A stretch of DNA of 64,000 nt from NCBI GenBank assembly GCA_035506675.1, contig DATJOX010000055.1, forward strand, positions 10,951 through 74,950, in the 5' to 3' direction. How positions within the stretch are numbered: the first letter of the stretch is position 1; each line of letters starts with the position of its first letter. This document shows, piece by piece, positions 291-38,875 of the stretch. Under the pieces are notes generated by a model. That model saw only the letters and a program-made list of their open reading frames with translations. It searched no databases and had not been told where the DNA came from. Both the position numbers and the translations under genes were made by a program. This DNA is from Methanomassiliicoccales archaeon (GTDB lineage Archaea; Thermoplasmatota; Thermoplasmata; Methanomassiliicoccales; UBA472).

Positions 291-3200
291 TCACTTGTCG
301 CCTTTCGAGAGGTCCTTAGCGACCGCCTCGAGGTCCTCGACGCTCGCGTTGTCCAGCTCTGCCTGGCACTGGGGGCACTTGGCGCTATCGCTCGGGATCT
401 TGGCCCCGCAGGCCGGGCATTCCAGCTTCTCGGACTTCTTGCCCTGCAGCGGGAGTCTCAGGGCCGCGTTGGTCGCGAGCAGCGGAGCGGTGGTATCCTT
501 GATCCCGCGAACCCCTTCCAGGTCCCCGTCCCAAGCGACGAGATTGGCGCCATAGGTCTTTTCCATCTCCGCGATGACCTCTTTCATCTTGTCAGGCACC
601 TTGCCGGTGCGCTCGCCGTGCAGCACCACTGCCAGGAATACGTTCGCGCCCTTCTCCACCAGGATCTTCTTGTCCCCGAAGTCCAGGCGCTGGAGGTGCG
701 TGGCGCTTTCATCCTTGAACGAGTCTTTCACGAAGCTCTGGATGGCGACGAGCATGGAGGAGAGGATGTCGTCGTCCATTCCTGGTTTCAGCCTTCTAGT
801 CTGGTGCGCGATCAATCTGCCGTCCTCATAGATCACGAAGACCTCGTCGACGGCTATGCGCGATCCCCACATGTACAGCGATAGGACTAGCGCCGCGAGA
901 ACGACAGCCACGAACAGCAAGATGAGGGTCGAATCACCTGGCGCCACGACTGAGATTTCGTAGTGTCCGGTACTGTAGTTGTTCTGTTCATTGTCAGTCG
1001 CTACGATCCAATACGTGACAATTGCCGTGTGATTAAGACCAGGAATCTGGGCCGCGTAATTGTTAGGTGAGCCCTGTGGCGTCATTTGCACCACGTTTTC
1101 CGTTCCGTTGTTGACTAAGTAGTGCAGCGTGACAGAATCGATGCCGACCGGATCCGAGACCATGGCAGCAACGGTTACAGCCTGGCTAGTATTCACCGAG
1201 CTGATTGCGCCCTCGAGCACGACCTGCGGAGGCGTTTCGTCCTTGGCGACACTGATCCAACGGATGGTGGTGTTGGAAACCCCTTCATCATCCGTCACGG
1301 TGAGGGTTACCAGGAACTCCCCTTTGGTTGAGTAAATATGGCTGACATCTTTGCTCCAAGTGACATGTCCGTCGCCGAGATTCCATGTCCAGTTCACGAT
1401 GGGGGATGACGGGGTCGTCGACATGTCGTTGAAATACGTATATTGACCCTCAGTGCTGGATGTCTTCGTGAACGCCGCTGTAGGGCCCTTGTCGACGATG
1501 GTGATCCGTTGGCTGGTCGTATTCTTGGAACCATCGGAATCGGTGACCAGCAGTGTGACATTGTACTTGCCGCTATGAACGAAGACGTGCGTACAGTTCT
1601 CGACGGTCGACGTACTGCCATCGCCGAAGTCCCACTTCCACAAATGGAGAGGATCATATGATGTGCTCGTGTCATTGAACCAGACATGATACCCTTCGAA
1701 GCCCTGGCTCGGTTCGATAGAGAAACTAGCGATAGGGACGGAATTGACGATCTTCACCAGCATCGAAGTCGAATTCACGGAGCCATTGCCATCTGTCACA
1801 GTCAGAACTACTGTGTAATTGCCATCTTTTGCGTAAGTGTGATTCACTTGGCTTCCATGGGACGTTTCATTGTCTCCAAACACCCAATACCACGATGCAA
1901 GCCCGTGGTATGCCTTGGAATGATCGACGAAATGAACGTTCTTTCCTTCCGTCTGGTTCTCTGGCGAGTATGTGAAACTTACGTCTGGGAACGAATAGAG
2001 CACCGTTATGTTCATTCCGAAGGTGCTGGAGACGTTGTCGGAGTCAGTTACTGTGATGGTCACAAAATAGGGCGCCGTGCGGTTGTAAGCGAAGATATGG
2101 GTGACGTTGCTGAGTTTCGACGATGTGCCATCCCCAAAGTCCCAGTGTACCGAGATGATACCATCATAGTGGCTTGACGTGTCGTTGAAGACCACGCTCG
2201 TTCCCTCGATCGGCGAAACACTCGAGACGGTGAAGTTCGCTTTCGGGGGGACATCGATGACCGTTATGTTGCAGTAGGCCCTGCTGATGCTTCCATCGTT
2301 GTCCTCGACTGTAAGTTCGACGGTGTAATTTCCATGCACGACGTATCTGTGACTGGACAAATTGCCGGATCCCACGCCGCCGTCGCCAAAGCTCCAGGTC
2401 CAGCTCTTAATCGGATCGTAGATGACCTTGGAGTGGTCCGTGAAGTTGCAGATTTGCCCTTCGGATATCTGATAGGCCGAAGAGGTGAAGTTTGCCACGG
2501 GGACCGTGTCCATGACTTGTATCTTCTTTGAGATGTTGCCGCGTCCTCCATCACTGTCTGTGACGGTTAGATTGACAGTATAGTTGCCTTGATTACCGTA
2601 GACGTGGGGCAGCGGATTAGCGAGATTTGAGTAGTTACCGTCGCCGAAGCTCCAATTCCATAAGTTAATTGGGTGGGGGTAAGAATGTGATAGATCGGTG
2701 AAATTAACGGTGTCAACACCCTCTCTCGGCGAGGTTGGCGTGAAGTTGAAGTCAGCGACTGGGAACGTCTGAGTGATCACCATGCTCAAGTTGCTCCAGT
2801 CGCTCAGGCCCCCCCTGTCTGTGACCTTGAGCGAGACATTGTAGGGGCCATACTCCCAATAGGTGGCGTTGACTATCTCCCCAATCGGATGGTAGGTGCT
2901 ATTGAACCACCACTGGAACGTTAGCGAGCCCCGGTCTGAGAATGAATCGTTGCTGCCTTCGCCCGAGAACGTGATTTTCTGGCCTTCCGGCGCAGTGTAG
3001 GCGGATGCGGTGGCGTTCGCTTTAGGAGCAAGATTCTGCTGGAACCATAGACTTAGGGAATGAGAATCGGGCGCCGAGCAGACCACGTCGGTCCTGAGAT
3101 CCCCGTTCAGATCGCAAGCTGCAACATCGGCGCAGATGCCACCGGACGTCCAGTTTGGGCCTTCCTGGAACGTGGAAACTCCGTTCCTTAGGTACGTGTC

Positions 3201-5351
3201 CACTATTGGCGTGTTCGCATAGCCAACGACCAGATCCTCCTTGCCGTCGTCGTTGATGTCGCCCGCTCCGATGGCTGTGGCGGCCTCCTTGATGGTGAGG
3301 ACGGCTGCTGCGCTCACGTCGATAGTGAAGCCATAAGGCTGTTGGTCGTAGATCAGAATCCGGTTGGTAGAATCAAGGATTGCTAAGTCTTGGCCCGTAG
3401 GCCCTCCGAAGTCACCGGAGACCATCATCTTCATGCTTGAGCCGCTGTAAGTGAGATTGGCGCTTGGGTTCTTTGGGTAGTAATTGCCCGCAGTTCCTGG
3501 ATGGTTCCTCAAGAAGATCTCCACGGTTGATGTTGCTGAGTTGAGCACTGCCAGATCTGTCGCGTTCCTATCTTGGTCGAAGTCTCCCGGGACTATGTTG
3601 GCTGTACTTCCTACGCATGAGCTGCCGAACGTCTCTGATTGGGCAGGATTGAACATTGAGCTAGTGGCAGTGTTGTACAGCGCCAGGAGGCCGTGACCTG
3701 AGCCAATTACGAGGTCATCGCGGCCATTGTCTCTGATTGAGACGTTCGCAATGCAACTGGCATCTGTCAGTGGTATTGTGATATTGACGAACGGCTGAGT
3801 CCCCAAAGCGTACTGCTCATCCTTGTAGACATTCACGGTGTGTGAGGACGAGCATAGGATAGCCAGATCGTTCGAGGAGTCGCCATCGAAGTTGCCAAAA
3901 ACTAAATCCACTGGGCCGACCGAAGTCGATAGTAGTCGCCGCAGACCACTGGTCGGATCGCTTAGCAGCACCTCGTTCGATCCAGGGATAATCGAAGCGA
4001 TGATGTCGCTACCGTCTCCCATACGTCCTGAGGCGAGTTTGCCTGGGCTCAGGGCTGCTGTGAAAAGGTTCAGGTCAGCGTTGCTTGTGAATCTTGAATT
4101 GCAGGAAAAGGCCTCCAGCGTCGAATTCGATACGCCGTCACCAGCGGACAACACCAAAAGGTATTCCGTTCCTTGTGCAGACGGGTCGATTACGATCTTG
4201 AGTGGCTTCGCGTTGACGGGAACGGTGGCATTGGGTGTGAGGCTCCAGCTGGTGCTAGTCAACGCGAACGCGGCAGAAACATTTGAGCCGGACGCTGATG
4301 CCCAGACCGCGTCGTGTCTGCCATCATCTGTCACGTTCCCGAACGTGACATCTGAAACGCCTGATGCCGGGATTGGGGTCTGGGAAATTGAGCTGAAGAA
4401 TGTCCCGGTGTTCATGAAGACGTATATTTTCGAATTGATTGAGTTAGCGAAGATCAGGTCCGGTCTGCCATCGCCGTTCACATCACATAGTTCGACGTCA
4501 GCGGCGGACCCAGAGATTGACATCGTTTGTTGCGAATTCCAGTCTCCTCCGGCGCTATGAGTAAATACGCCTACGTTCGCTGCACCCTTCTCGGCGACGA
4601 CGATGTCGGTCAGGTTGTCACCGTCGATGTCTGCCGCCGCCATGCAACGGCTCTTCATGAAACCAGCGATAGGCAGGTATGAGTGATCGGAGTCATCGTT
4701 CATCGGTTGGCTCCATATGTCAATTTCATCGTCCGCCATCGTTGGGGAACCTTCACAAAGGACTGCGACTGAATTGAGTGTCTTGCTTGTGAAATGGCCT
4801 ATCGCGATCATCGATGGGTTCGGTCTGAAGAGGTTCAATATCTTCGCGTAGGACGGGTTGAAGGAATTGTTCTGGTAGAAGATGGCGATCTCAGGATTGT
4901 GCCCTGTGCTGTTGCAGCTGACTGCGATGTCATTGAGCCCGTCGTTGTTCAGATCGCCGATCGCCACCGATCTTAGGTCGATGACATCCGATCGGATAAT
5001 GCGTTCTGGGCGACCGGAGAACAATCCGTTCGATAGCTGATGATATATCTGGATGGCATTAGTCTGGCTGGAGATGACGACAGCCTCGGTCCTGCCATCG
5101 TTGTCGATGTCTCCAATGGCGAAGTCGCACGCCCCGCGGTCGACGAGGATGGCTTGTCCGTATTCGTTGAAGACCGTTCCATTCTTGAAGAGTTGGCTCG
5201 TGTCGTGCTGCAGAGGCGGGGTGGCCGCAAGCACTTGAGAGTCAAGTCGCGTGGCAGCTTGGACAACGCCGATCGGTGAGAGCATGCATAGAGCGACAAC
5301 TAGAACTGCAGCGAGCATGACCCCCTTGCTCAGTTGTCCCATGACCCCCAT
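291..5351 (-). CDS. Giant surface protein: signal peptide, FG-GAP/VCBS propeller repeats, 7 PKD domains, TM anchor, cytoplasmic Roadblock-like domain, C-terminal zinc ribbon
   Basis: The longest ORF is 291..5369. I moved the start to ATG 5351 because the TATA box (5382..5388) is only 13 nt from 5369. It has a signal/TM segment (GVMLAAVLVVALCMLSPIGVVQA) and about 12 DxDxDG repeats (IGDIDNDGRTE, IGDLNNDGLND, DIDGDNLTD, DVNGDGRPD, GDINDDGKED, CDLNGDLRTD). It has 7 PKD repeats (W.W.FGDG...VTD.DG) and many N-x-S/T sequons. A TM segment (LILLFVAVVLAALVLSLYMW) is followed by a 189-aa tail and a CPAC-x10-CPQC ribbon. Confidence 0.85.
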   Translation of the reverse strand: MGVMGQLSKGVMLAAVLVVALCMLSPIGVVQAATRLDSQVLAATPPLQHDTSQLFKNGTVFNEYGQAILVDRGACDFAIGDIDNDGRTEAVVISSQTNAIQIYHQLSNGLFSGRPERIIRSDVIDLRSVAIGDLNNDGLNDIAVSCNSTGHNPEIAIFYQNNSFNPSYAKILNLFRPNPSMIAIGHFTSKTLNSVAVLCEGSPTMADDEIDIWSQPMNDDSDHSYLPIAGFMKSRCMAAADIDGDNLTDIVVAEKGAANVGVFTHSAGGDWNSQQTMSISGSAADVELCDVNGDGRPDLIFANSINSKIYVFMNTGTFFSSISQTPIPASGVSDVTFGNVTDDGRHDAVWASASGSNVSAAFALTSTSWSLTPNATVPVNAKPLKIVIDPSAQGTEYLLVLSAGDGVSNSTLEAFSCNSRFTSNADLNLFTAALSPGKLASGRMGDGSDIIASIIPGSNEVLLSDPTSGLRRLLSTSVGPVDLVFGNFDGDSSNDLAILCSSSHTVNVYKDEQYALGTQPFVNITIPLTDASCIANVSIRDNGRDDLVIGSGHGLLALYNTATSSMFNPAQSETFGSSCVGSTANIVPGDFDQDRNATDLAVLNSATSTVEIFLRNHPGTAGNYYPKNPSANLTYSGSSMKMMVSGDFGGPTGQDLAILDSTNRILIYDQQPYGFTIDVSAAAVLTIKEAATAIGAGDINDDGKEDLVVGYANTPIVDTYLRNGVSTFQEGPNWTSGGICADVAACDLNGDLRTDVVCSAPDSHSLSLWFQQNLAPKANATASAYTAPEGQKITFSGEGSNDSFSDRGSLTFQWWFNSTYHPIGEIVNATYWEYGPYNVSLKVTDRGGLSDWSNLSMVITQTFPVADFNFTPTSPREGVDTVNFTDLSHSYPHPINLWNWSFGDGNYSNLANPLPHVYGNQGNYTVNLTVTDSDGGRGNISKKIQVMDTVPVANFTSSAYQISEGQICNFTDHSKVIYDPIKSWTWSFGDGGVGSGNLSSHRYVVHGNYTVELTVEDNDGSISRAYCNITVIDVPPKANFTVSSVSPIEGTSVVFNDTSSHYDGIISVHWDFGDGTSSKLSNVTHIFAYNRTAPYFVTITVTDSDNVSSTFGMNITVLYSFPDVSFTYSPENQTEGKNVHFVDHSKAYHGLASWYWVFGDNETSHGSQVNHTYAKDGNYTVVLTVTDGNGSVNSTSMLVKIVNSVPIASFSIEPSQGFEGYHVWFNDTSTSYDPLHLWKWDFGDGSTSTVENCTHVFVHSGKYNVTLLVTDSDGSKNTTSQRITIVDKGPTAAFTKTSSTEGQYTYFNDMSTTPSSPIVNWTWNLGDGHVTWSKDVSHIYSTKGEFLVTLTVTDDEGVSNTTIRWISVAKDETPPQVVLEGAISSVNTSQAVTVAAMVSDPVGIDSVTLHYLVNNGTENVVQMTPQGSPNNYAAQIPGLNHTAIVTYWIVATDNEQNNYSTGHYEISVVAPGDSTLILLFVAVVLAALVLSLYMWGSRIAVDEVFVIYEDGRLIAHQTRRLKPGMDDDILSSMLVAIQSFVKDSFKDESATHLQRLDFGDKKILVEKGANVFLAVVLHGERTGKVPDKMKEVIAEMEKTYGANLVAWDGDLEGVRGIKDTTAPLLATNAALRLPLQGKKSEKLECPACGAKIPSDSAKCPQCQAELDNASVEDLEAVAKDLSKGDK

Positions 5352-9713: not shown

Positions 9714-10124
9714 ATGGCGGACATGAAGAAGCTGGTCATAGTGGTCTCTGAGGGAACGTTCGACAAGGCGATGGAGTCGATGATGATCGCGAACACGGCG
9801 GCGAGCATGGGCATCGACGTGCACGTGTTCCACACGTTCTTCGGGCTGCCGCTGCTTAAGGCGAATGCGGACCCGAAGGCGCCCGGCATGATGAGATTGT
9901 TCACGGGCATGTTCAAGAACAAGATGAAGGCGGTCGGGGTGCCTGGATACTCGGAGCAGAAGAAGATGGCGATCGAGCAGGGCGTGCACATGTACGCATG
10001 CTCGACCTCGATGAGCGTCATGGGCGTAACGAAAGAGGATCTCACCCCGGGGACGGTCGTCCTGGGCGCGGCCGCGTTCCTGAACATCGCCGCGGACAGC
10101 GACATGCAGTTCTTCATCGGGTGA
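9714..10124 (+). CDS. DsrE2-type (DsrE/DsrF-like, COG2210) sulfur carrier
   Basis: KKLVIVVSEGTFDKAMESMMIANTAASMG...VHMYACSTSMSVMGV; 136 aa. Confidence 0.7.
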   Translation: MADMKKLVIVVSEGTFDKAMESMMIANTAASMGIDVHVFHTFFGLPLLKANADPKAPGMMRLFTGMFKNKMKAVGVPGYSEQKKMAIEQGVHMYACSTSMSVMGVTKEDLTPGTVVLGAAAFLNIAADSDMQFFIG

Positions 10125-10128
10125 GCGC

Positions 10129-10431
10129 GTGACCTCGGTCCTCTTCATCATGACGAAGTCGCCGCACGAATCGACCGGGCTGGAGCTCCTGCCCTCCCTC
10201 GCAGGGGAGAGCGAGCGGGGAGTGATGCTCTTCGAGGATGCAGTGTACTTTGCCGCCGACCAGAAGAGCGCGAAGCACCTGCTGGAGCACGTGCAGGAAG
10301 CGTTCGTCCTGAAGGACGATCTCGAGGCGCGCGGCTTCGGCGGATGCGCCACTGGCAAGTTCAAGGAGATCGACTACCACCAGGCGGTCGAGGTCATCAT
10401 GGAGAGGTACGACCGCACCATCACGGTCTGA
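10129..10431 (+). CDS. dsrH: DsrH/TusB-like protein
   Basis: 100 aa. LFEDAVYFA...VLKDDLEARGF...IDYHQAVEVI is collinear with TusB. GTG start 4 nt after the previous stop. Confidence 0.7.
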   Translation: MTSVLFIMTKSPHESTGLELLPSLAGESERGVMLFEDAVYFAADQKSAKHLLEHVQEAFVLKDDLEARGFGGCATGKFKEIDYHQAVEVIMERYDRTITV

Positions 10432-10440
10432 GGTGAGCGA

Positions 10441-10800
10441 ATGACAAAGACACTGTTGGTACACCTGCGCTCGGGCAGCATGATGAACATGGACTCGAAC
10501 TTGGCGGTGAAGTTGATGTCCGCTGCCTTGGACCAGGGCTACAACGTGCGCTTCTTCGGATACGGAGAAGGGATCACGGTCATCAAGGAAGGTCAGGACC
10601 CGAAGCGCTTCCCGAACGTGGGAAAGGAACTTATCCAGCTCGCGGAGCGCGGGGCGACGATAGTCGTATGCGAGACGTGCTGCGCGGCGCGGGGCATACA
10701 CCGCGGCGAGGAAGTGAAAGGCTCGAAGATCGGAAGCCTCACGAACGACTTCTCGAAGTTCGTGGCGGAAGCGGACCGCATCGTCACGCTGGCGAGGTGA
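10441..10800 (+). CDS. dsrE: DsrE/TusD-like protein with active-site Cys
   Basis: 119 aa. VVCETCCAARGI corresponds to the TusD/DsrE ICVAAALRRG cysteine loop. Confidence 0.75.
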   Translation: MTKTLLVHLRSGSMMNMDSNLAVKLMSAALDQGYNVRFFGYGEGITVIKEGQDPKRFPNVGKELIQLAERGATIVVCETCCAARGIHRGEEVKGSKIGSLTNDFSKFVAEADRIVTLAR

Positions 10801-10804
10801 AAGC

Positions 10805-11164
10805 ATGGCGGACAGCATCCTGATACTGGCTACGAAGGCTCCCTACGGCAACGAGGAGTTCTTCGCGGGCGCGAGGCTGTCGCTGGCGATGCTCGCTAGC
10901 GGATTGATCAGCAGGTCCACGGTGCTCATGGTCGGCGATGGCACATTGAACGCCGTCGCGACGCAGAAGCCCGAGGCGATCGCGATGCCATCGAATCCGG
11001 AAGCGATCAACGACCTGGCGGACTTCGAGGGCGAGGTGTACATGGTCGAGGAGGACCTGAAGGCTCGAGTCGGGGACGCTCCGGTGCTCGATGGCGTGAA
11101 GAAGATCTCGTGGGAGAGGGCCCAGGAGCTCATCCGCGACCATCAGCTGATCACCACCTTCTGA
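10805..11164 (+). CDS. dsrF: DsrF/TusC-like protein
   Basis: 119 aa. ILILATKAPYGNEEFFAGARLSLAM...YMVEEDLKARV...HQLITTF is collinear with TusC. Confidence 0.7.
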   Translation: MADSILILATKAPYGNEEFFAGARLSLAMLASGLISRSTVLMVGDGTLNAVATQKPEAIAMPSNPEAINDLADFEGEVYMVEEDLKARVGDAPVLDGVKKISWERAQELIRDHQLITTF

Positions 11165-11241: not shown

Positions 11242-12963
11242 ATGATCGAGACGCTGGCGCGGTCCTCGCTCGGGCGCACAGCCGCCTTCACGGTCGGCGA
11301 CACGAAAGTGCTCATGCCGAGCATCGCGTTCGTGGCTTCTCGTCCACTGCCAGAGGGCGCCGACGTCATCAGCGACCCAAGCAAGGGACTTCAGCTGAGG
11401 CAGGTCGGTGGCACTCTGCTGCTCGATCTCGGGGAGCGCTACTGCGCACCTATGAAATTCGAACAACCCGAGCCTGACGATGACACTTGTGGCAGCGCTC
11501 TGGCTGAGCCGATAGGAGAGAAGTGTGCGATCGAGCCAGAGGTGAGCAATGCGGAGTTGCAGGTGCTCGAAGGCGCATTCGGGCTGCGGCGGGATGCGCG
11601 TGCTTTCGTTCGCGGAATTGCTGCGGTCAGAAAGCGCATCGGCCCAAAGCCATTGCTCTTCGCTCCTGGCGTCATGGACGTCTCCAATCTCGCGTTGCTC
11701 GTCTACTGCGGCATAGACGCTATGGACTCGTCGCTCATCGACTATCTCGCATCGCAAGGCCGGCTGTCGACCGCAGAAGGACAGATCAAGGCCGAGGATG
11801 CCGATTGGATCGTCTCGACCGGAAGCGTCGAGGATACCACGAAATCCAATAGAACCGCTGCGCTCCGAGAGCTCGGTCTCGTTCGGCACATGACCACGAT
11901 CGGTAGGCTCAGGGAACTGGTCGAGATCCGCTCGCAAGCGACGCCCTGGGGGGTCGCGGCGTTGCGCCTCCTTGATCTGGAAGAGCAGGCGCTGCAGGAG
12001 AAGTTCACGGCCGTCGTGGGGCCGAGGTTCTACGCGAACTCAAAGCAGTCGCTGTCGCGACCGGATGTCGTTCGATACCGGGAGCGGATCAAGCAGCGGT
12101 TCCGCCCCGCTCCGCACAAGAAGATCCTTCTGCTCATCCCGTGCTCAGCGAAGAAGCCCTACTTCACTTCGAAGAGCCATCGCGCGTTCCGTTCTGCTCT
12201 CACGAGCGTCCCGAACCACGAGGTCGTCCAGGAGCTGATCGTGACCTCGCCCCTAGGCGTCGTGCCGCGAGAACTGGAGCTGTTCTATCCTGCCGCTCAG
12301 TACGACATCCCGGTGACGGGTCACTGGGATAGGGAGGAGGTCGCGATGGTGCGCGAGCTCGTCTCTCACGTTGCCTCGCAGGGCTTCGAGCGCGTGGTCT
12401 CCCACATGGGCCCGGAAAGCGAACTGCTAGAGGGCGTCGACTTTATCCAGACGTCCGAAGGAAGGGCCACTTCGTCGGCGTCCATCCAGAGGCTCACAAG
12501 CGCTCTGACGGATCTCTGCTCGAACTATCAGAAGGTCGGCGGAGGCCGGGACAGAACGGAGAGCGTCGCTTCCGCCGCTAGGTTCCAGTTCGGGGAAGGA
12601 GGGGAGGCGCTGGTCGAAGGGTGCAGCGTATCCGGCCTCTATCCGATATCCAAGATATCCCATCAAGGGACTCAGCTGGGCATGATCTCGCAGGAACGAG
12701 GCATGATCTCACTCACCGTTGAGGGTGGGATGCGCCTCCTGAAGCAGCGCATGCACATCGTCGAGATGGAGGATTTCGAGCTGCGCGGCAATCTTTTCTG
12801 CAAAGGTGTCAAGGAAGCGGATCCAGGCCTTCGCGCGGGCGACGAGGCTCTGGTCGTGAGGAACGGGGAATTGCAAGCGGTGGGCGTGGCCGCGGTTTCG
12901 GGGCCCGAGATGACCGCCTACGATCGCGGCATCGCGGTCACCATCAGACATAAAAAGAAGTAG
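11242..12963 (+). CDS. arcS: Archaeosine synthase alpha subunit (TGT-like N-domain, DUF5591, C-terminal PUA)
   Basis: 573 aa. KKILLLIPCSAKKPYFTSKSHRAF (DUF5591-type) and a C-terminal PUA-like GDEALVVRNGELQAVGVAAVSGPEM. Confidence 0.75.
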   Translation: MIETLARSSLGRTAAFTVGDTKVLMPSIAFVASRPLPEGADVISDPSKGLQLRQVGGTLLLDLGERYCAPMKFEQPEPDDDTCGSALAEPIGEKCAIEPEVSNAELQVLEGAFGLRRDARAFVRGIAAVRKRIGPKPLLFAPGVMDVSNLALLVYCGIDAMDSSLIDYLASQGRLSTAEGQIKAEDADWIVSTGSVEDTTKSNRTAALRELGLVRHMTTIGRLRELVEIRSQATPWGVAALRLLDLEEQALQEKFTAVVGPRFYANSKQSLSRPDVVRYRERIKQRFRPAPHKKILLLIPCSAKKPYFTSKSHRAFRSALTSVPNHEVVQELIVTSPLGVVPRELELFYPAAQYDIPVTGHWDREEVAMVRELVSHVASQGFERVVSHMGPESELLEGVDFIQTSEGRATSSASIQRLTSALTDLCSNYQKVGGGRDRTESVASAARFQFGEGGEALVEGCSVSGLYPISKISHQGTQLGMISQERGMISLTVEGGMRLLKQRMHIVEMEDFELRGNLFCKGVKEADPGLRAGDEALVVRNGELQAVGVAAVSGPEMTAYDRGIAVTIRHKKK

Positions 12964-14199: not shown

Positions 14200-14409
14200 T
14201 CAGATTCGGGTTGTCCAGGTCGTCGTTCGGGTGGAGGTTGGAGATCCGTTCTTGGCAGCATTTCTCTGCGATGAGACGATGCGCTTGGACTCTCTGCTTC
14301 GCTGCAATCATTAATCTCCCAGCAGCGCATTGCGCCCCGAACAACGGGGGAGTAGGCAGCGCCGCAAAAGGATCCTTACAAGGGAAAGCTCAAGAACGCC
14401 TGGGATGCG

Positions 14410-16206
14410 GTGAACATGATCGGTCGGGGCAAGACCGTATTCATCGGCACCGCCGCCGGGGAGCCGCAGGCCTTGACGCGAGCGCTCGGTGCCAACGCCA
14501 GCGAGATGGGCGATAACGAGATCATCCAGGCTCTGTCTCTCTTCCTCTCGCCGAAGCGTGAGGACATGATGCGCTACAACTTCCGGTTCAACGCGCTGTT
14601 CGTCGGGCCCGAGGTGCGCACCCTGGTCAAGGAAGGCCGAGGAGAATACACCCCCGCGCATCTGTCCGAGATGGCTACACTCCTCGAGGAAGGAAAAATC
14701 CACGTCGATTGCGCATTCATCCAGGTGACTCCTCCGGACGAGAGCGGGAACTGCTCTCTCGGAGTGAGCGTCGACATCACGAAGAGCGCGGCCAAGGCAG
14801 CGGAAATGGTGATCGCGCAGGTCAACCCCAACATGCCGCGCACGTTCGGCGATTCGCTGATGAACGTCGACGACATCGATGCGTTCGTATTCGAGGAAGA
14901 GCCACTTCTGGAATGGAAGAGGGTGGACGAGGTCGGTCCCGACCTCGAGCAGATCGGTCACCACGTCGCCGCGCTCGTCGACGATGGCGCAACCATTCAG
15001 ATCGGCTACGGAGCGATCCCCGACTCGGTGCTCAAGTTCCTCGGCGAGAAGAAGGACCTGGGAGTGCATTCAGAGATGTTCTCGGACGGCCTCATCGATC
15101 TGGTCGAGGCTGGCGTCATAACCTGCGCCAAGAAGACCAAGCATCCAGGCAAGGTGGTGGCCTCGTTCGCGCTCGGCAGCAAGCGCCTCTATGACTTCGT
15201 CGACGGCAACGAGATGTTCGAGTTCTACCCCTCACTTTACACGAACAGCCCCTGCACCATCCAGGCGAACAAGAACATGTGCGCGATCAACTCCGCCCTC
15301 GCGGTCGACCTCACCGGCCAGGTGTGTGCCGACCAGCTCGAGCATGAGTTCTACTCGGGCATCGGAGGTCTCGCGGACTTCATGCGCGGAGCCTCGATGT
15401 CACGCGGCGGCAAGGCGATCATCGCCATGCCATCGACGGCGCAGAAGGGAACGGTCTCGAGGATAGTGCCGACCCTTCCCGAGGGGAGCGCGGTGACGGT
15501 GAACCGGTGCGACGTCCACTTCGTCGTCACGGAGAACGGCATCGCCGAGCTCCGCGGCAAGAGCATCGAGCAGAGAGCGTTGGAGCTCATCGAGGTCTCG
15601 GCACCGAAGTTCAGGGCGCAGCTGCTGGAAGAGGCGAAGCGACTCGGGTACGTGAAGCAGGAGCGTTCTGCAGCGCCGTTCATGGGTCGGCAATATCCAT
15701 CCGACAAATCGGTGATCATGAAGGTGAAGGGGCAGGCGGTGCGCATCCGGCCGCTGAAGCCGACGGACGAGGAGGTGATCAAGGAGCTGTTCTACTCGCT
15801 ATCCGAGGACAGCGTCTACGAGCGTTTCCTTTCCTACGAGAAGATCATGCCGGTGCAGATCCGCAACCTGCTCGGCGTCGACTACGACACCAGGATGGCG
15901 ATGATCGCGATCATCCGCGAGGAAACGCGTTCCGAAGCGATCGGCATGTCTTCCTACGACCTCGACCCCGTCACTGGATTGGCAGAGGTCTCGTTCGCGG
16001 TCCGGGACGACTGGCAGAACCTGGGGGTAGGCACGCAGCTTTTCCGCATGCTCGTCGACTACGCTCGCGAGATAGGCATCCGAGGGTTCACGGCCGAGAC
16101 GCTCTCCACGAACATCCGCATGATCGATATCTTCCACCGCTCCGGTCTCCGCGTGGAGACGAAGTTGGTCGAGGACATGATCATGATCAAGGCGTACTTC
16201 CAGTGA
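14410..16206 (+). CDS. Fusion protein: acetyl-CoA hydrolase/transferase-family domain plus C-terminal Pat-type GNAT acetyltransferase
   Basis: The N-terminal ~430 aa are collinear with 4-hydroxybutyrate/acetyl-CoA transferases (GKTVFIG..., EFYSGIGGLADF). The C-terminal ~155 aa (15739..16203) read VRIRPLKPTDEE...DYDTRMAMIAI...FAVRDDWQNLGVGTQLFRMLVDYAREIGIRGF, typical of the Pat/YfiQ GNAT domain. Confidence 0.8.
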   Translation: MNMIGRGKTVFIGTAAGEPQALTRALGANASEMGDNEIIQALSLFLSPKREDMMRYNFRFNALFVGPEVRTLVKEGRGEYTPAHLSEMATLLEEGKIHVDCAFIQVTPPDESGNCSLGVSVDITKSAAKAAEMVIAQVNPNMPRTFGDSLMNVDDIDAFVFEEEPLLEWKRVDEVGPDLEQIGHHVAALVDDGATIQIGYGAIPDSVLKFLGEKKDLGVHSEMFSDGLIDLVEAGVITCAKKTKHPGKVVASFALGSKRLYDFVDGNEMFEFYPSLYTNSPCTIQANKNMCAINSALAVDLTGQVCADQLEHEFYSGIGGLADFMRGASMSRGGKAIIAMPSTAQKGTVSRIVPTLPEGSAVTVNRCDVHFVVTENGIAELRGKSIEQRALELIEVSAPKFRAQLLEEAKRLGYVKQERSAAPFMGRQYPSDKSVIMKVKGQAVRIRPLKPTDEEVIKELFYSLSEDSVYERFLSYEKIMPVQIRNLLGVDYDTRMAMIAIIREETRSEAIGMSSYDLDPVTGLAEVSFAVRDDWQNLGVGTQLFRMLVDYAREIGIRGFTAETLSTNIRMIDIFHRSGLRVETKLVEDMIMIKAYFQ

Positions 16207-18192
16207 TCAAGCCTTCGGTAAGACGCGGTTCTCCGCCAGCTTCTCGACGACCGTCGGATCGGCGAGCGTGGTTGTGTCTCCGATGTTGTCCATGTCGCCC
16301 GAGGCGATCTTCCTCAGGATGCGGCGCATGATCTTGCCGCTGCGCGTCTTCGGCAGTCCGGATGCGAATTGGATTGCTTCCGGCGCGGCGATCGGTCCGA
16401 CCACTGCCCGAACGTGCTTCACGAGATCCTTCTTCAGGTCCTCGGACTCTTCCACTCCAGACTTGAGAGTCACGAATGCGTAGATCGCCTCGCCCTTGAT
16501 CTCGTGCGGCATCGGCACGACCGCGGCTTCCGCGACTTTCGGGTGCGAGACCAGCGCGCTCTCGACCTCCGCAGCGCCGATGCGGTGCCCGGAAACTTTG
16601 ATGACGTCGTCCACGCGTCCCATTATCCAGATATACCCGTCCTTGTCCCTGCGCGCCCCGTCGCCCGTGAAGTAGACTTCCGGCCAGCGCGACCAATATG
16701 TCTCCTTGAAACGCTCGTGCTGCCCGTAAACGGTGCGCATGATGCCAGGCCAGGGCTTCTTGATCACGAGGTAGCCGCCCTCGTTCGGGCCAGCCTCGCT
16801 CCCGTCCTCCTTGAAGATCGCCGGCTCGATGCCGAAGAACGGCAGCGTGGCAGAACCTGGCTTCGTAGTGATGGCGCCGGGAAGGGGCGTGATCAGGATG
16901 CCTCCTGTCTCCGTTTGCCACCAGGTGTCGACTATTGGGCATCTCTCCCGTCCCACGTTCTTGTGATACCACATCCAAGCCTCCGGGTTGATCGGCTCTC
17001 CGACGGTGCCCAAGAGGCGGAGGGACGAGAGGTCGTGCATCTCCGGCCACTTCTCGCCCTCGCGCATCAGAGACCGGATGGCGGTGGGGGCGGTGTAAAA
17101 TATGTTGATCTTGAACTTCTCGACGATGTGCCAGAACCGGTCTACCTGGGGGTAGGTCGGCACGCCTTCGAACATGAGCGTCGTCGCTCCGGCCGAGAGA
17201 GGTCCGTAGACGATGTAGGAGTGCCCGGTGATCCAGCCGATGTCAGCGGTGCACCAGTAGGTGTCCTCGTCGCGGTAGTCGAAGATGTAGCGGAAGGTGG
17301 TGGTCGCGAACACCATGTACCCGCCGGTGGTGTGCAGCACGCCCTTCGGCTTGCCGGTCGAGCCCGAGGTGTAGAGGATGAAGAGCGGGTCCTCCGCATC
17401 CATGTGCTCCGCTTCGCAGACCGCCGAGGCATCCTGCATCTCCTCGTGATACCAGAAGTCGCGGCCCGCGGTCATACTGACCTCTGAGCCGGCGCGCTTG
17501 ACGACGATGACCTTCTCCACGCTCGTACCCTTTTGCAGGGCCAGGTCGGCGTGGGTCTTCAGCGAAATGTGCTTCCCGCTGCGGAAGGAGCCGTCGGCGG
17601 TGACGAGCACCTTGCACTTGGAGTCGTTGATACGGTCGCGCAACGACTCGGAGCTGAAGCCGCCGAACACGATCGAGTGCACAGCGCCGATGCGGGCGCA
17701 GGCGAGCATCGCGACCGCGAGCTCAGGGATCATGGGCAGGTAGATCGAGACACGATCTCCCTTCTGCACCCCCATTTTCTTGAGCACGTTCGCGAACTTG
17801 CAGACCTCGCGATGGAGTTGCTGGAAGGTGAGCGTGCGCACGTCCTCTTCTGGCTCACCTTGCCAGATTATAGCAGCCTTGTTCTTGTGCGGGCCGGCGA
17901 GATGCCTGTCGAGGCAGTTGTAGCTCGCGTTGAGCTTCCCCCCCTCGAACCACTTGATGATGACCTTCTGCTTGTCCCATGAGAACCCGCTCTTCCAAGT
18001 CGAGAACCAGTGAATCTCTTGCTTGGCGATCCTTTCCCAAAACGCCACTGGATCGGCGATAGACTCCCGGTAGATCTCTTCGTACTCGTCCATGCTTCTG
18101 ACCCGAGCCTTGCTGCTGAAATCCTTCGAGGGCTCGAATCTCCGGTCCTCTTCCATTACCGATTCAATGGTCTTGCCATCGGTCATCTTCAT
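16207..18192 (-). CDS. acs: AMP-forming acetyl-CoA synthetase
   Basis: [21 protein letters not shown] and a C-terminal SGKIMRR motif. I chose ATG 18192 (MKMTDGK) as the start; the longest ORF reaches 18279. Confidence 0.9.
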
Positions 18193-18367
18193 TCCCCAGC
18201 CGACTGTCCGCCGCTCGTCCAGAGTGGTCTGGTCGACGCTCTCGACCGCGGACTTCAGGAAGGTATAACCGAGATTCATATAATCGTTGCGTGAAGGCCA
18301 TCCGACAAATGACGAATGGTGCCGAAATCCCTCGATTGACTGCGAAAAGCGAAGGGGTGAGGTTCGG

Positions 18368-18760: not shown

Positions 18761-18887
18761 TGGTCTCCGTCTTGAGTCAGCGTGTGGCCAGACCGATCCT
18801 CCAAAGCAAGCCAGTTCTGGGAAGCGCGTCAAAAGGTTTTTCTTGAGACCACGCCATTATCGCACAAAACCCAGGGGTGCACTAGGG

Positions 18888-21800
18888 ATGGGATTACTCG
18901 ATTCGATTACTGATAGGGAAACGAAGGCGCTGAAGAAGGCTCAAAAACTGATGGAGAGCACTGCGGGCGTCGTTCCCATGGAGAATCTGACCAAGGCCAG
19001 GGATCAACTGACTGAGGTCTCCGTAGATCCGAACCTCGGGCGCAAGCAAGAGTTCTCTGACGCTTACGTTCGCCTGAGCGACCTGTTCCTCCGAGGAGGC
19101 AACGCTGCAGATGCGTCCCTCGCGGCAGACAACGCGATGAGACTGGTGCCTGGAAGTGTTCCTGCTGTCATTGCACGCGCAAAAGCCTCTTCGGCCTCTG
19201 GCAAGGTGGAGGAAGCCATCAGAGCCATCGATTGGGCTCTGAACCAGAACCCGTCTGACAAGACACTCCTAGTTGAGCGCGGCTGGGTCTACGATCGTGC
19301 TGGCAACGATAGCGGCGCGGTCGACTCGTGGAAGAGGGCCGCGGAAGTGGACCCGCAAGATCTCTCCGTCCTCGACCTTCTTGCCAACAAGTCGCGCGAG
19401 AAAGAGTACTGGCTGAGGAAGAAGGGGGACGCCCAGATGGCGAAAGGTACGTACGCGGAAGCGGCGACGACCTTCGACGAAGCTCTCGCTGGCGACCCCA
19501 ACAATGTGGAGGTGCTCACTGAGAAAGGAAAGGCGCTCATGCTCGCTGGCAAGTATGACGAAGCGGGCGACGTCTACGAAACGGTGCTCCGCCTGGACTC
19601 ACGTAACTTCACAGCGCACCTGAACCGCGCAAGGGCCATGCGCCAGAAGCACGATGACCTGGCAGCGATCCAGCACTACAAGGAGGCGCTCCGCTCCAAC
19701 CCTACCGACAAATCAACATGGGTTGAGGTCGCGACGCTCCTCGAATCCTTGAGCCGGTTGGACGAGGCGCTCAAGGCCTTCGAACGCTCGCTCGAGCTGG
19801 ATCCGAAGTTCCTTCCAGGGCTGGAAGGCAAGTGTGGAGTTCTCAGGGCGCAGGAGCGCGACGAGGAGGTCGTCGTCTGCGCCAATGAGATCATCGCACT
19901 GAACAAAGACGACCTGCTCACGCACTCGATCATGATCGGCGCGCTCATGAAGCTTGGCCGATACCAGGAGGCGCTCGACGCCATCGAGGAATCGCTCAAG
20001 GTGGCGCCCAAGGACCGCGACCTATTGGAAAGGAAGCGCACGGCCCTAAAAGAACTGGGCAAGCACGAGGAAGTGATCAAGGTCGCGAACGAAACGGTCA
20101 CGCACCACGACGAGGACGCCGCGACCCTGTACGATCTCGGCATGGCGCTCGTTCTCACTGGAAAATACGAGGAGGCTTTGAAGCCCCTCGAGAAGTCCCT
20201 CAAGCTGCAACCGGACCGCGAGAGCGCGCTCGTCGCGATCAAGGAGTGCTACAAGCACGTCGGCAAGGACAAGGACGTCCTGGCGACCTGCGACCGCATA
20301 CTCGATCTCAATCCACGCAACAAGGACGCCCTCGAGGACAAGGCGATCGCCCTGGACCGCTTGGACAGGAAGGACGAGGCCATCGAGACCTATGAGAAGA
20401 TAATCGAGCTCGACCCGGAGGACGAAGAGATCCTCGCGGACCTGGCGGTCGCGTACTTCTCGAAGGAGAAGCACGAGGAAGCGCTCAGCCGCGCGCGAAT
20501 GGGGACCGAGCGGTTCCCCACCAACCCCCTGTTCTGGATGGTGAGCGGCGACGCGCTCTTCGCTTTGGGCAAGGCGGAGGAGGCGGCAGAGTCGTTCCAG
20601 AAGGCCGTGGAGCTCAAGCCCAACGATAAGCGCTTGCTGTACTCGAGGGGTCTGGCCCTGGAAGCGGCGCACCACTGCGAGGAGGCCGTCGCCTGCTACG
20701 ACGAGGCGCTCCAGATGGACTCCAACGACAAGAACCTCTGGATCTCGAAGGGGGTCGCGCTCGAATGGCTGCAGCGCTACCCCGAGGCCCTCAAGTCCTA
20801 CGATCTTGCGCTCTCCCTCGATCCCAACAACGCTTTCGCCCACGTGCGCCGCGGCCAAGTGCTGGCCAAGCTGGAGCGACACGATGAGGCGGTGGGCGCG
20901 TTCGACCGCGCGATCGATCTCGGCACAAAGGACGTCGAGGTGCTGGAGGCGAAGAAGGACTCTCTCAAGGTGCTCGGCAAGCACGACGATGTGATGAAGG
21001 TGGCCGCGCACATCACCAAGGTCGACCCGAAGAACACCAAGGCCTGGGTGGACCGCGGGCTCTCGGCGCAGAAGACGAACGATCTGGACGAGGCGGAGCG
21101 CTGCTTCGACCGGGCGCTCGAGATCGAACCCGAGAACCTGGACATCCTGGAGCGCAAGAAGTCCGTTGCGATCCAGAAGCAGGACTCGCAGAAGGTCGTG
21201 GACGTCTGCGCGAGGATCCTGCAGCTCGACCCTCGCAACAAGAACGCCCACGTGGACATGGCCCGCGCGCTTGAGGTGCTGGGCAAGCTGGAGGGGGCGG
21301 TGAGCGAGTACGACGCCGCCCTCGCGCTCGATGACCAGGACCGCACGCTCTACAATCGCAAGGGGCTCGCACTGATCTCACTTGAGCGCTACGGCGCCGC
21401 GGTGGAGGCGTTCGACGCGGCCTATCATTTGGATCCGGACGATCCACGAACACTCGACAACAAGGGCCGCGCGCTCCTTCTATTGCACTCATACCAGGAC
21501 GCCCTCGAGGTGTTCGACCAGTGTTCCAAGATCTCGCCCCAGACCGCGCAGTACCAAGCAGACCGCGGACGCGCCCTCGCCTCGCTTGAACGGTACGATG
21601 AGGCGGTGCAGGCGTTCGATTCCGCGCTCGCAATCGATCGGCGCGACGGACAGACCTGGAAGTACAAGGGCACGGCGCTGCTCAAGCTCGGGAAGTACGA
21701 GGAGTCGGTCGCTTGCTTCAACCGGGCGATCGACTACGGCGCGATAGATCAGTCGGTGTACAAGTCGAAGGCCCGGGCGCTCGAGGAGCTGGGCCGCCTG

Positions 21801-23189
21801 CCCGACTCGCTCGAGTGCTATCAGAAGGCGATGACATTCGACGACAAGGACCCCGGGCTGTGGGCAAGGATCGGCGGCGTGCAGGCCCGCCTGGGCGATG
21901 TCGAGAGCGCAGCGGGCTCGATAGACCGCTCGCTCCAGATCGACCCGCGCAACAAGAAGGGTTGGCTCGAGCGCGGGGCGCTCATGGAGAAGCTCGGCAA
22001 ATACGAAGAGGCGCTCAAATCCTACGATTCCGCGATCGGCATCGATCCCTCGGACCCGTTCGCCTGGAATGGGAAGGGGATGATACTGCTGCAGTTCGGG
22101 ACGGACGATCAGGCGGTGAGGGCGTTCGACCGCGCTCTGGAACTGAATCCATCGATGGAGTCTGCCGCCGAGGGAAAGCGCATCGTGCAGAGAAGGCTGC
22201 ACGAGCTGGAAGTCTCCGCTTGGGCGGTGAAGGTGCTGCAGGCCGAGCACCGCCGCGGCGGGGAGATGACCAAGGAGGACGCGTTCCGCGAGTGCGGCAT
22301 TCCATATTCAAGCCTTGATGAGGTCTTCGAGTACCTGGAGCAGCCGGAGCCAGTCGACGTGAACGCGTTGAGCGAAACGGAGTTCGCGGACTATGAGGAC
22401 CTGTCCCGGCGCGTGCTCCTGGCGGCCTATAGGAACCCCGGCGTGTCGCGGCACGGACTGCGCGTTTCCGACGTGCTGATGAATCTGCCGGACGAGGACG
22501 TGGCCACGGCAAAGAAGGTCTACTCGTACATCCAGCGCGTCAACGAACTGGAGTTCCGACCGGGCAAGCCCGATCCGGAGTCGGAGAAGCTGCTGCGCAA
22601 CGCGCTCTCCCTCCCGGAGGAGAAGCGCTCCGCCGTCGGGCTGATGGAGAACCTCGGCATCGGCATCTACCAGGCGCGCAAGCTCATCGGCATGATGCAG
22701 GGCTTCCGTGGCCCGGGAAGGAAGGCAGCCCCGGTGAAGGTCAAGGAGTTGCACGAAGAGGAGGAGCTGGTCGAGCTGGACCAAGGGCCGGCGGCGCCGA
22801 CCAAGGACCTGGTGGAACGCGCGACGGAGCACAAGCGCACCGAACCCAGGCCCGCTCGGAAACCGAATCCCTACGAGGCGCCGGAACTCTACGTGCGCAC
22901 CAAACAAGAGAAGCAGCCGGTGGAGAAGGATGAGAAGGAGGAAGCGCAGGAGCCCAAAGGCAGAAGGTGCCTCTTCCACGGCGGATTGGCGGTCATGAAA
23001 TGCCCCTCGTGCGGTTCAGTGCTCTGCAAGGAGTGCACGGCCTCGGGGGCGTGCCCGCGCTGCAAGACGAACCTGGGGACGGCCCCGGCGCGCAAGCAGA
23101 GGGCGGAAGTGCCAGAGGGCGAGGAAGAGGAATCGAAGGATTCGGCTGGGCCATCGGCGGAGCAGCCCCGGGACTGGAGCAGGCTCTAG
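18888..23189 (+). CDS. Giant TPR-repeat protein (about 30 TPR units) with a C-terminal cysteine-rich zinc module
   Basis: TPR units run from about aa 100 to 1080 (e.g. AxxxYxxALxxDPxN repeated). A helical region and a K/E-rich linker follow. The C-terminus is C-x2-H-x7-C-x2-C-x4-C-x2-C-x5-C-x2-C (22968..23063). I chose ATG 18888, 28 nt after a cATTATcg box; the longest ORF starts at TTG 18843. Confidence 0.85.
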   Translation: MGLLDSITDRETKALKKAQKLMESTAGVVPMENLTKARDQLTEVSVDPNLGRKQEFSDAYVRLSDLFLRGGNAADASLAADNAMRLVPGSVPAVIARAKASSASGKVEEAIRAIDWALNQNPSDKTLLVERGWVYDRAGNDSGAVDSWKRAAEVDPQDLSVLDLLANKSREKEYWLRKKGDAQMAKGTYAEAATTFDEALAGDPNNVEVLTEKGKALMLAGKYDEAGDVYETVLRLDSRNFTAHLNRARAMRQKHDDLAAIQHYKEALRSNPTDKSTWVEVATLLESLSRLDEALKAFERSLELDPKFLPGLEGKCGVLRAQERDEEVVVCANEIIALNKDDLLTHSIMIGALMKLGRYQEALDAIEESLKVAPKDRDLLERKRTALKELGKHEEVIKVANETVTHHDEDAATLYDLGMALVLTGKYEEALKPLEKSLKLQPDRESALVAIKECYKHVGKDKDVLATCDRILDLNPRNKDALEDKAIALDRLDRKDEAIETYEKIIELDPEDEEILADLAVAYFSKEKHEEALSRARMGTERFPTNPLFWMVSGDALFALGKAEEAAESFQKAVELKPNDKRLLYSRGLALEAAHHCEEAVACYDEALQMDSNDKNLWISKGVALEWLQRYPEALKSYDLALSLDPNNAFAHVRRGQVLAKLERHDEAVGAFDRAIDLGTKDVEVLEAKKDSLKVLGKHDDVMKVAAHITKVDPKNTKAWVDRGLSAQKTNDLDEAERCFDRALEIEPENLDILERKKSVAIQKQDSQKVVDVCARILQLDPRNKNAHVDMARALEVLGKLEGAVSEYDAALALDDQDRTLYNRKGLALISLERYGAAVEAFDAAYHLDPDDPRTLDNKGRALLLLHSYQDALEVFDQCSKISPQTAQYQADRGRALASLERYDEAVQAFDSALAIDRRDGQTWKYKGTALLKLGKYEESVACFNRAIDYGAIDQSVYKSKARALEELGRLPDSLECYQKAMTFDDKDPGLWARIGGVQARLGDVESAAGSIDRSLQIDPRNKKGWLERGALMEKLGKYEEALKSYDSAIGIDPSDPFAWNGKGMILLQFGTDDQAVRAFDRALELNPSMESAAEGKRIVQRRLHELEVSAWAVKVLQAEHRRGGEMTKEDAFRECGIPYSSLDEVFEYLEQPEPVDVNALSETEFADYEDLSRRVLLAAYRNPGVSRHGLRVSDVLMNLPDEDVATAKKVYSYIQRVNELEFRPGKPDPESEKLLRNALSLPEEKRSAVGLMENLGIGIYQARKLIGMMQGFRGPGRKAAPVKVKELHEEEELVELDQGPAAPTKDLVERATEHKRTEPRPARKPNPYEAPELYVRTKQEKQPVEKDEKEEAQEPKGRRCLFHGGLAVMKCPSCGSVLCKECTASGACPRCKTNLGTAPARKQRAEVPEGEEEESKDSAGPSAEQPRDWSRL

Positions 23190-38825: not shown

Positions 38826-38875
38826 AGGCAGCCAAGCTATTTCTAGTCACCATCACAATCGCAGCCTTGGGAAGG

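Follow-up and report, generated by a model that had tools for sequence, protein, structure and literature searches.

A gene abutting acs in a Methanomassiliicoccales archaeon codes for a CoA-transferase joined to a Pat-type GNAT domain

A 64,000-nt stretch of contig DATJOX010000055.1, from a Methanomassiliicoccales archaeon (referred to below as the window), was found to contain a gene whose product joins a CoA-transferase module to a C-terminal GNAT domain. The gene converges on acs, which codes for acetyl-CoA synthetase of the AMP-forming type (Acs), and the two genes meet stop to stop. By sequence comparison, the GNAT domain belongs with the Pat-type protein lysine acetyltransferases and not with the small-molecule GNATs. 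The family formed by this fusion is widespread, unnamed and uncharacterised. With moderate confidence, the protein is proposed to be a Pat-type lysine acetyltransferase having a CoA-transferase as its partner domain, which would act on enzymes that form acyl-CoA.

Domain layout of the fusion protein

The gene was read as an open reading frame (ORF) starting with GTG (Table 1). The NCBI version of the protein, HTY47606.1, starts at the ATG at 14416 and has 596 aa. It was the 100% match in the database searches (P0001, from a metagenome-assembled genome (MAG) of a Methanomassiliicoccales archaeon), and its annotation reads 'GNAT family N-acetyltransferase', nothing more. Pfam models for both halves of a CoA-transferase, AcetylCoA_hydro (PF02550; residues 2–163, 1.2e-23) and AcetylCoA_hyd_C (PF13336; residues 256–409, E = 4.4e-61), were followed by matches to the GNAT models Acetyltransf_1 and Acetyltransf_3 (residues 445–580, 1.7e-8 and 1e-7). 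Pfam thus bears out the main architectural claim of a first-pass annotation of this DNA, namely that a CoA-transferase stands ahead of the GNAT in place of the acyl-CoA-synthetase-like domain of Pat. The sequence motifs quoted there (IRPLKPTDEE, DYDTRMAMIA and VRDDWQNLGVG) were all found in the translated ORF. The CoA-transferase domain had also been described as complete; both its N- and C-terminal Pfam domains are present, but its N-terminus is short, as detailed below.

The domains that accompany the GNAT in known Pats were not found. The fusion protein gave no Pfam match to CoA_binding, Succ_CoA_lig or ATP-grasp_5, the domains expected of type I and type II Pats, nor to a cNMP-binding, ACT or NADP-Rossmann effector domain, as expected of type III Pats. 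No NCBIfam model matched the protein at or above its cut-off, so neither its substrate specificity nor its family carries a curated name. In an AlphaFold2 model, residues 420–425 of the linker between the two modules had a predicted local distance difference test (pLDDT) value below 50.

The two-domain ORF is not a product of chance, since the best 120 database matches have the same layout. All of them are the same fusion, at 47–73% identity apart from the 100% self-match; the CoA-transferase C-terminal domain was present in 120 of 120, and a precomputed match to the N-domain in all but one.

Table 1. Features of the fusion gene, its upstream region and the adjacent acs gene; positions are those of the window
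Feature	Position	Strand	Basis
Conserved GCAATCATTAAT element, GCAAT(G/C)ATTAAT, ~40 nt upstream of the ancestral start	14304..14315	+	Kept in the window and in 5/6 aligned relatives (L001–L005)
In-frame TAG (14353..14355) where relatives have ATG, then 18 codons (AAPQKDPYKGKLKNAWDA) like the family N-tail, no start codon	14353..14409	+	Translation, homologue N-termini, DNA alignment
Fusion CDS, CoA-transferase–GNAT, 598 aa, GTG start at 14410	14410..16206	+	ORF list, Pfam
CoA-transferase module, 4-hydroxybutyrate / butyryl-CoA:acetate type, residues 1–409	14410..15636	+	PF02550, PF13336; TtCoAT 9vag 3.6e-116; Foldseek
Glu222 codon in GVHSEMF, predicted catalytic nucleophile	15073..15075	+	Alignment to AbfT of C. 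aminobutyricum (3gk7), residue 238
SGIGGLADF loop, residues 316–324, oxyanion/CoA loop	15355..15381	+	Alignment A1
Linker, residues 410–444, with conserved YP-x-(E/D) stretch ahead of the GNAT	15637..15741	+	Alignment A1
Pat-type GNAT lysine acetyltransferase domain (assigned by similarity), residues 445–598	15742..16203	+	Pfam, PDB sequence searches, NCBIfam
Glu526 codon (LAEVSF), counterpart of catalytic PatZ E809	15985..15987	+	phmmer alignment to 9it0
Q536-N-L-G-V-G541, GNAT motif A, acetyl-CoA pyrophosphate loop (P-loop)	16015..16032	+	Sequence
acs, AMP-forming acetyl-CoA synthetase, 690-aa ORF, convergent with the fusion gene	16207..18279	-	Pfam, NCBIfam TIGR02188
PKTRSGK (PX4GK) acetylation motif of Acs, residues 643–649; Lys codon 16333..16335 = K649 (ORF numbering)	16333..16353	-	Regular expression, sequence

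Relationship of the GNAT domain to Pat enzymes

The GNAT domains of 19 members of the fusion family were aligned (alignment A2), and the resulting profile was run against the PDB. Matches over the full domain were obtained to PatZ (3.9e-39), SlPatA (1.5e-32), MsPat and MtPat (~1e-23) and SsPat (6e-15), while the best small-molecule GNAT reached 1.5e-9 in a partial match that spanned the acetyl-CoA motifs A/B only. When the GNAT part of the window protein was compared singly with solved structures, matches were found to Escherichia coli PatZ (7.9e-16), the GNAT of Streptomyces lividans PatA (1.8e-13), the cAMP-regulated Pats of mycobacteria (~1e-9) and the Sulfolobus Pat (1e-6). The only NCBIfam model to match this part was 'acetyltransferase Pat', below its cut-off. 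The first-pass assignment to the Pat type was therefore upheld by the A2 profile; grouping with small-molecule acetyltransferases, the outcome that would have counted against it, was not observed, since the Pat structures matched over the full domain.

The residues expected of an active acetyltransferase are in place. Glu526 occupies the position of the catalytic glutamate of PatZ, E809 (PMC12184503), and of E123 in SlPatA. Across 67 full-length fusions (66 fetched loci plus the window, the set used for all family counts below), this position was Glu in 63 and Asp in 4. Motif A of the GNATs, defined as Q/R-x-x-G-x-G/A (PMC8556138), is present as an acetyl-CoA-binding loop in the window protein, and over the 67 fusions Q, H or R was kept at position 536 and G at 539. 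Further, the ELFYSLSEDSVYERFLSY stretch, which aligns with the gating motif region of PatZ, was conserved over the 67 family members.

The CoA-transferase module

The closest solved relative of the N-terminal module was the Thermus thermophilus CoA-transferase TtCoAT (9vag; 3.6e-116, ~50% identity), followed by other 4-hydroxybutyrate CoA-transferases. The AlphaFold2 model of the fusion protein (pLDDT 77.7) was matched by Foldseek to the 4-hydroxybutyrate CoA-transferase structures 3gk7, 2oas and 3eh7, with template modelling (TM) scores of 0.86–0.90. Glu222 aligns with Glu238 of AbfT, the catalytic nucleophile of that enzyme, and in the oxyanion loop S316, G317, G319, G320, D323 and F324 were invariant in alignment A1. 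The intact Glu222 and loop, together with the identity to TtCoAT, an active enzyme, argue for the window protein being a live CoA-transferase as well. The score against the butyryl-CoA:acetate CoA-transferase equivalog TIGR03948 was 239.4 bits, below the cut-off of 674.8, so the substrate specificity of the module could not be assigned.

The nucleophile and oxyanion loop were intact in 57 of the 67 fusions, the window protein included. They were altered in two clades: in one (L062, L063, L064, L067, L068 and L089) the nucleophile is changed from E to Q and the loop GG to GD, and in the other (L056, L066, L072 and L074) E is changed to D and the loop is also altered. Both clades retain the GNAT positions, that is, the catalytic Glu (Asp in two members) and the motif-A loop. 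The role of the N-terminal module therefore appears to outlive its catalysis; most simply, it would consist in ligand binding or in scaffolding the GNAT. In PatZ, the ACD-like domain (ACD, ADP-forming acyl-CoA synthetase) lacks the catalytic His, which is replaced (L245; PMC12184503). The first-pass annotation had viewed the CoA-transferase as a sensor that takes over from the ACD-like sensor of Pat. Such a role is plausible for the family, given the two clades with a dead nucleophile, but the window protein retains Glu222 and the loop, unlike the dead domain of Pat, so that one sensor having replaced another is not established here. Clades with live and dead nucleophiles are natural experiments for telling sensing from catalysis.

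Distribution of the fusion

Fusions of this kind, with identities of 39–73%, were found across many archaeal and bacterial phyla, among them Methanomassiliicoccales, other Thermoplasmata, WOR-3, Calditrichota, Planctomycetota, Anaerolineales, Deferrisomatales, Limnocylindrales and other groups. Their names are generic throughout, some JGI labels being RimJ/RimL or YncA-like. A metagenome scan with the family alignment gave at least 600 matches, a diverse set. An exhaustive phmmer search of 1.84 billion representatives with the GNAT domain yielded 2026 matches below 1e-10; the best 150 of these comprised many full-length fusions of 600–660 aa and fragments of them, along with small GNAT-only proteins (some possibly fragments) and type II GNAT-ACD proteins. 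A word-indexed search that used just the GNAT domain gave only five proteins and was uninformative. One protein among the best 150 phmmer matches, P0181 (960 aa), has a 4Fe-4S ferredoxin domain ahead of the CoA-transferase–GNAT, which hints at a redox input in some lineages.

The literature consulted yielded no paper describing a CoA-transferase–GNAT fusion and no named family. The current classification of acetyltransferases into types I–V (PMC8556138; PMC12184503) has no regulatory domains other than ACD-like, cAMP, ACT and NADP+ ones, and the architecture found here lies outside it. The suggestion in the first-pass annotation that this is a new type thus holds in part: the architecture turned out to be widespread, but is uncharacterised.

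The acs gene and the neighbourhoods of related fusions

The stop codons of the fusion gene and of acs are contiguous, forming TGATCA (TGA/TCA, 16204..16209) with no spacer, and K649 of Acs is conserved; the reading of both from the DNA was confirmed, the lysine codon being the reverse complement of ctt and the surrounding residues matching the PX4GK expression. Work on Pat has established this motif as the acetylation motif of Acs. Acs contains the Pfam domains ACAS_N, AMP-binding and AMP-binding_C, and scored 1039.9 bits against the acetate--CoA ligase equivalog TIGR02188 (cut-off 724.95). Its ORF runs ~30–37 codons upstream of the model start (residue 38), and translation probably begins at Met30 or Met32 (MKMTDGK...).

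The neighbourhoods of the 67 full-length fusions were compared by clustering the flanking ORFs. In the six closest loci (L001–L005 and L010; 71–73% identity) acs is convergent, with 1–4 bp between the stops. These count as one observation, because they also share the wider synteny; likewise, a single-sequence scan of genome contigs gave only five relatives, all close and with the synteny shared throughout, which are not independent evidence. At greater distance, a convergent acs was found 241 bp away in L006 (55% identity), while in L091 (56% identity) acs lies directly upstream, 50 bp away and in the same orientation. The presence of acs as a neighbour in relatives of 55–73% identity in two orientations, and in several bacterial loci, indicates that the link is not accidental, as had been supposed from the window.

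Family-wide, the most frequent partner was not Acs. An ACD (~700 aa) was present within three genes of the fusion in 18 of the 67 loci, in most cases encoded on its strand and separated by -45 to +60 bp, and an AMP-forming acyl-CoA synthetase (ACS) in 15, in several orientations. A PF00850 HDAC-type deacetylase gene was present within the same distance in nine loci, directly downstream in most, and in some carried a fused response-regulator receiver. When the loci were dereplicated at 60% identity, an ACD or ACS was still present within three genes in 14 of 27 clusters. Composite loci were also found, with the orders ACD-ACD-fusion-HDAC plus a transporter of the MFS type and an ACS (L028), fusion-RR/HDAC followed by a convergent ACS (L031; RR, response regulator), and ACS-MFS-fusion-ACD (L039). 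Unfused CoA-transferase relatives from the same scan had no adjacent GNAT gene, and their neighbours were others. The PX4GK motif was present in every complete neighbouring ACS. The neighbouring ACDs kept the SHTGS/ALAG phospho-histidine motif in 20 cases of 20, which marks them as working enzymes and not as dead domains like that of Pat; the ACD of L007 matched a characterised 4-hydroxybutyrate-CoA ligase at 1e-186. On these two grounds, the idea that the adjacent ACD is the sensor domain of a 'split' Pat was rejected. Overall, the neighbourhoods support a lysine acetyltransferase that would control enzymes activating acetate and other acyl groups.

The MFS transporter genes lie between or beside the ACS and the fusion (L039, 3235..4632; L028, 9040..10347), which is consistent with carboxylate uptake in the cluster. 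In L031, the deacetylase of HDAC type (2275..3804) that comes directly downstream of the fusion is itself joined to a response-regulator receiver; a neighbour in L038 (7784..9283) resembles it in cluster membership and length. Fusion of receiver and HDAC would place the eraser under two-component control.

The HDAC-type neighbours were nearest to bacterial HDAC-like proteins and HDAC6, HDAC10 also being among the matches. This bears on a further interpretation of the family, in which the CoA-transferase makes an acyl-CoA from acetyl-CoA and an organic acid, the GNAT acylates an amine metabolite (an amino acid, a polyamine or similar), and the HDAC neighbours are hydrolases of acyl-polyamines or amides. 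GNATs are often small-molecule enzymes, PF00850 covers polyamine deacetylases, and the RimJ/RimL and YncA-like labels of some members would fit. However, the top solved full-domain matches of the fusion GNAT are all protein lysine acetyltransferases, with small-molecule GNATs at least 20 orders of magnitude weaker and confined to motifs A/B; the gating-motif region of Pat is conserved; and the neighbours are classical components of Pat systems, including Acs with PX4GK. A metabolite-acylating enzyme is accordingly regarded as most improbable.

The shortened N-terminus

Homologues of the fusion protein have 616–620 aa and start ~20 residues earlier, e.g. with MGPSSLEPYKERVRTAEEAV. The DNA of this region was aligned for the window, L001–L005 and L010. 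The window has a TAG at the position of the ATG of its relatives, and its sequence contains no in-frame ATG, GTG or TTG between this TAG (14353) and 14410, although the intervening codons resemble the N-tail of the family. The Pfam match of the N-domain begins at profile position 23, and the first helix is therefore incomplete. A second MAG contains a 99.3%-identical protein likewise annotated with 596 aa, so the shortened N-terminus looks real and not an assembly error. The conserved element upstream of the ancestral start (Table 1) is a candidate archaeal TATA/BRE promoter, and given its conservation transcription probably still starts there. Pyrrolysine read-through of the TAG was ruled out, since there is no in-frame ATG, GTG or TTG from the previous stop to the TAG; the promoter-like element also sits within that stretch.

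The change of ATG to TAG, which trims the first helix of the CoA-transferase, might alternatively indicate that the gene is decaying and that this copy is inactive or poorly expressed. The lack of an in-frame start before 14410 and the truncated Pfam match would agree with this. Beyond the N-terminus, however, the 598 codons are intact, identity to relatives is 70–73%, all catalytic motifs are present, the short form persists in the second MAG, and the tight arrangement with acs is kept. Decay is thus considered very unlikely.

Proposed function

From the domains and gene contexts described, we infer substrates, a direction of regulation and a coupling between the two domains as follows. The GNAT would take acetyl-CoA as donor and acetylate enzymes by which acyl-CoA thioesters are made or split. 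In the window archaeon the target would be the abutting Acs, at K649 of its PKTRSGK motif, and acetate activation would thereby be turned off at times of abundant acyl-CoA. In many bacteria it would be the ACD encoded in the same operon, Acs, or both, and the neighbouring Zn-dependent HDAC-type deacetylase, where there is one, would reverse the acetyl mark. The CoA-transferase module would fill the place of the dead ACD-like domain of Pat, binding acyl-CoA and coupling the thioester pool to GNAT activity. Because its catalytic residues are intact, the window protein is probably also a real CoA-transferase, and hence bifunctional.

A bolder version of this proposal takes the live CoA-transferase itself as the sensor. 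Its glutamyl-CoA or acyl-enzyme state, set by the ratio of acyl-CoA to free short-chain acid, would gate the GNAT or feed it acetyl-, propionyl- or butyryl-CoA, so that Acs and ACD would be switched by the thioester 'charge' and not by the level of acetyl-CoA alone. The protein would then represent a new class of lysine acyltransferases, and operons of the type [ACD][CoA-transferase-GNAT] could resemble the ancestral arrangement behind the ACD-GNAT Pats. This extension is speculative and, in our judgement, rather improbable.

Several observations weigh against a lysine acetyltransferase of acyl-CoA-forming enzymes. An acyl-CoA synthetase neighbour is missing in some relatives, such as L090 (from a complete Methanomassiliicoccales genome), L011 and L009. 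ACD lacks PX4GK and is not a known substrate of Pat. Since PF00850 includes polyamine deacetylases, protein deacetylation is not proven by the presence of HDAC neighbours, and in the window no HDAC homologue was found by tblastn, nor a deacetylase among the ORFs of at least 200 aa. Finally, the window copy lacks the ancestral start and ~20 N-terminal residues, which makes its activity less certain than that of its relatives.

An alternative is that the protein is a metabolic short-chain-acid:acetyl-CoA CoA-transferase whose GNAT acetylates the transferase itself, at the N-tail, or a partner subunit. The nearby synthetases would then be pathway partners and not substrates, the CoA-transferase feeding acetyl-CoA to ACD for ATP formation, and the presence of both enzymes in one operon would be metabolically sensible. 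The closest solved relative offers a documented acetylation circuit: TtCoAT is an active short-chain-acid:acetyl-CoA CoA-transferase that a stand-alone GNAT acetylates at Lys5 (and Lys6), a Zn-dependent deacetylase reversing the modification (10.1101/2025.10.31.685773). The N-tail of the fusion family, Y-x-x-K-h-x-T, aligns with Y3-R4-K5-K6-L7-T8 of TtCoAT, and intact CoA-transferase residues also fit this explanation. However, the Lys-rich tail of the window copy precedes its first start codon and falls outside the ORF. Lys5 is reportedly conserved only in Thermus, and acetylation alone left the activity of TtCoAT unchanged (10.1101/2025.10.31.685773). Further, the GNAT persists in the clades whose nucleophile is dead, which would make little sense if it served only to tune transferase catalysis, and the recurrent adjacency to acs in differing orientations would go unexplained. 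Acetylation of the transferase or of a partner subunit is a serious alternative but, on balance, an unlikely one.

If the fusions do act as lysine acetyltransferases on acyl-CoA-forming enzymes, they would add a CoA-thioester enzyme fold to the short list of partner domains of regulated acetyltransferases. Metabolic control by lysine acetylation has its model case in acetyl-CoA synthetase, which is acetylated reversibly. The family is present in many uncultivated anaerobic bacteria and in Methanomassiliicoccales; the latter, which are methylotrophic methanogens, reportedly depend on acetate as a source of carbon, and Acs would therefore be the point of carbon entry. Gene context points, in addition, to ACDs as candidate acetylation targets; in the literature, no account was found of their being controlled by acetylation.

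Comparison with known acetylation systems

The type I enzymes, Pat/PatZ (YfiQ) of Salmonella and E. coli (9it0, 9isq), have a C-terminal GNAT homologous to that of the fusion over its full length, with E809 corresponding to E526 and with the P-loop and gating region in common. In both, the GNAT comes after a large domain that binds CoA thioesters, and both are tied by genomics and function to Acs with its PX4GK lysine, the functional tie being a proposal in the case of the fusion. [quoted passage not shown] PatZ also has ~886 aa, compared with ~600 for the fusion, which in the window has an archaeal host.

Type II is represented by PatA of S. lividans, a GNAT-ACD protein (4nxy; 4u5y with Acs). 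Its GNAT is closely related (1.5e-32 with the A2 profile), GNAT-ACD proteins such as P0231 were among the nearest non-family relatives of the fusion GNAT, and PatA acetylates Acs, the proposed target of the fusion. The domain order is reversed in PatA, however, and its partner is ACD-like and not a CoA-transferase. The type III Pats (MtPat/MsPat with cAMP-GNAT, ACT-GNAT and NADP-GNAT) share with the fusion an N-terminal metabolite-binding domain followed by a Pat GNAT (~1e-23). They differ in that the partner in the fusion is a CoA-thioester enzyme fold of ~410 aa, not a small effector-binding domain, and is absent from the type III domains described.

In T. thermophilus, a CoA-transferase (TtCoAT, TT_C1083), a GNAT lysine acetyltransferase (TT_C1711) and a Zn-dependent lysine deacetylase (TT_C0104) are linked, as are the corresponding functions here. 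Those are three separate proteins, though; the transferase is the substrate of acetylation, and regulation is exerted through a partner resembling alanine dehydrogenase. In the fusion the GNAT is joined in cis, and it is acyl-CoA synthetases that are conserved as neighbours. The acsA/acuABC region of Bacillus subtilis likewise places an acetyltransferase gene against acs and includes an HDAC-type deacetylase, as do loci related to the fusion. However, AcuA is a stand-alone GNAT of another subfamily, AcuB regulates it in trans, and the genes are divergent, while the fusion gene and acs converge. A deacetylase gene, as expected of such clusters of writer, eraser and target, was seen in nine related loci but was not found in the window.

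Other genes in the window

The window contains an ADP-forming acyl-CoA synthetase of its own (38651..40978, + strand), a 775-aa ORF that is 43% identical to the ACD of L007, carries an SHTGALSG motif and passes the cut-off set for TIGR02717, a model of the acetate--CoA ligase alpha. The ORF after it, which overlaps it, codes for a protein with AAA_26 and DRTGG domains that resembles the N-terminal regulatory part of phosphotransacetylases; the two ORFs together span 38651..41970.

Upstream of the fusion gene, four consecutive small ORFs of 136, 100, 119 and 119 aa (9714..11164, + strand) were found, the first of the DsrE/DsrF family and the rest putative DsrE/F/H-type partners. They adjoin an ORF for an ArcS-like DUF5591/PUA/TGT protein (11242..12963). 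A 1448-aa protein with TPR repeats and a Cys-rich C-terminal tail is encoded at 18843..23189 (+ strand); it is kept downstream of acs in L004, L005 and L010, with 56% identity to the L004 and L005 proteins. The gene at 29325..31667 (+ strand) codes for an amino-acid permease joined to two C-terminal universal-stress-protein (Usp) domains.

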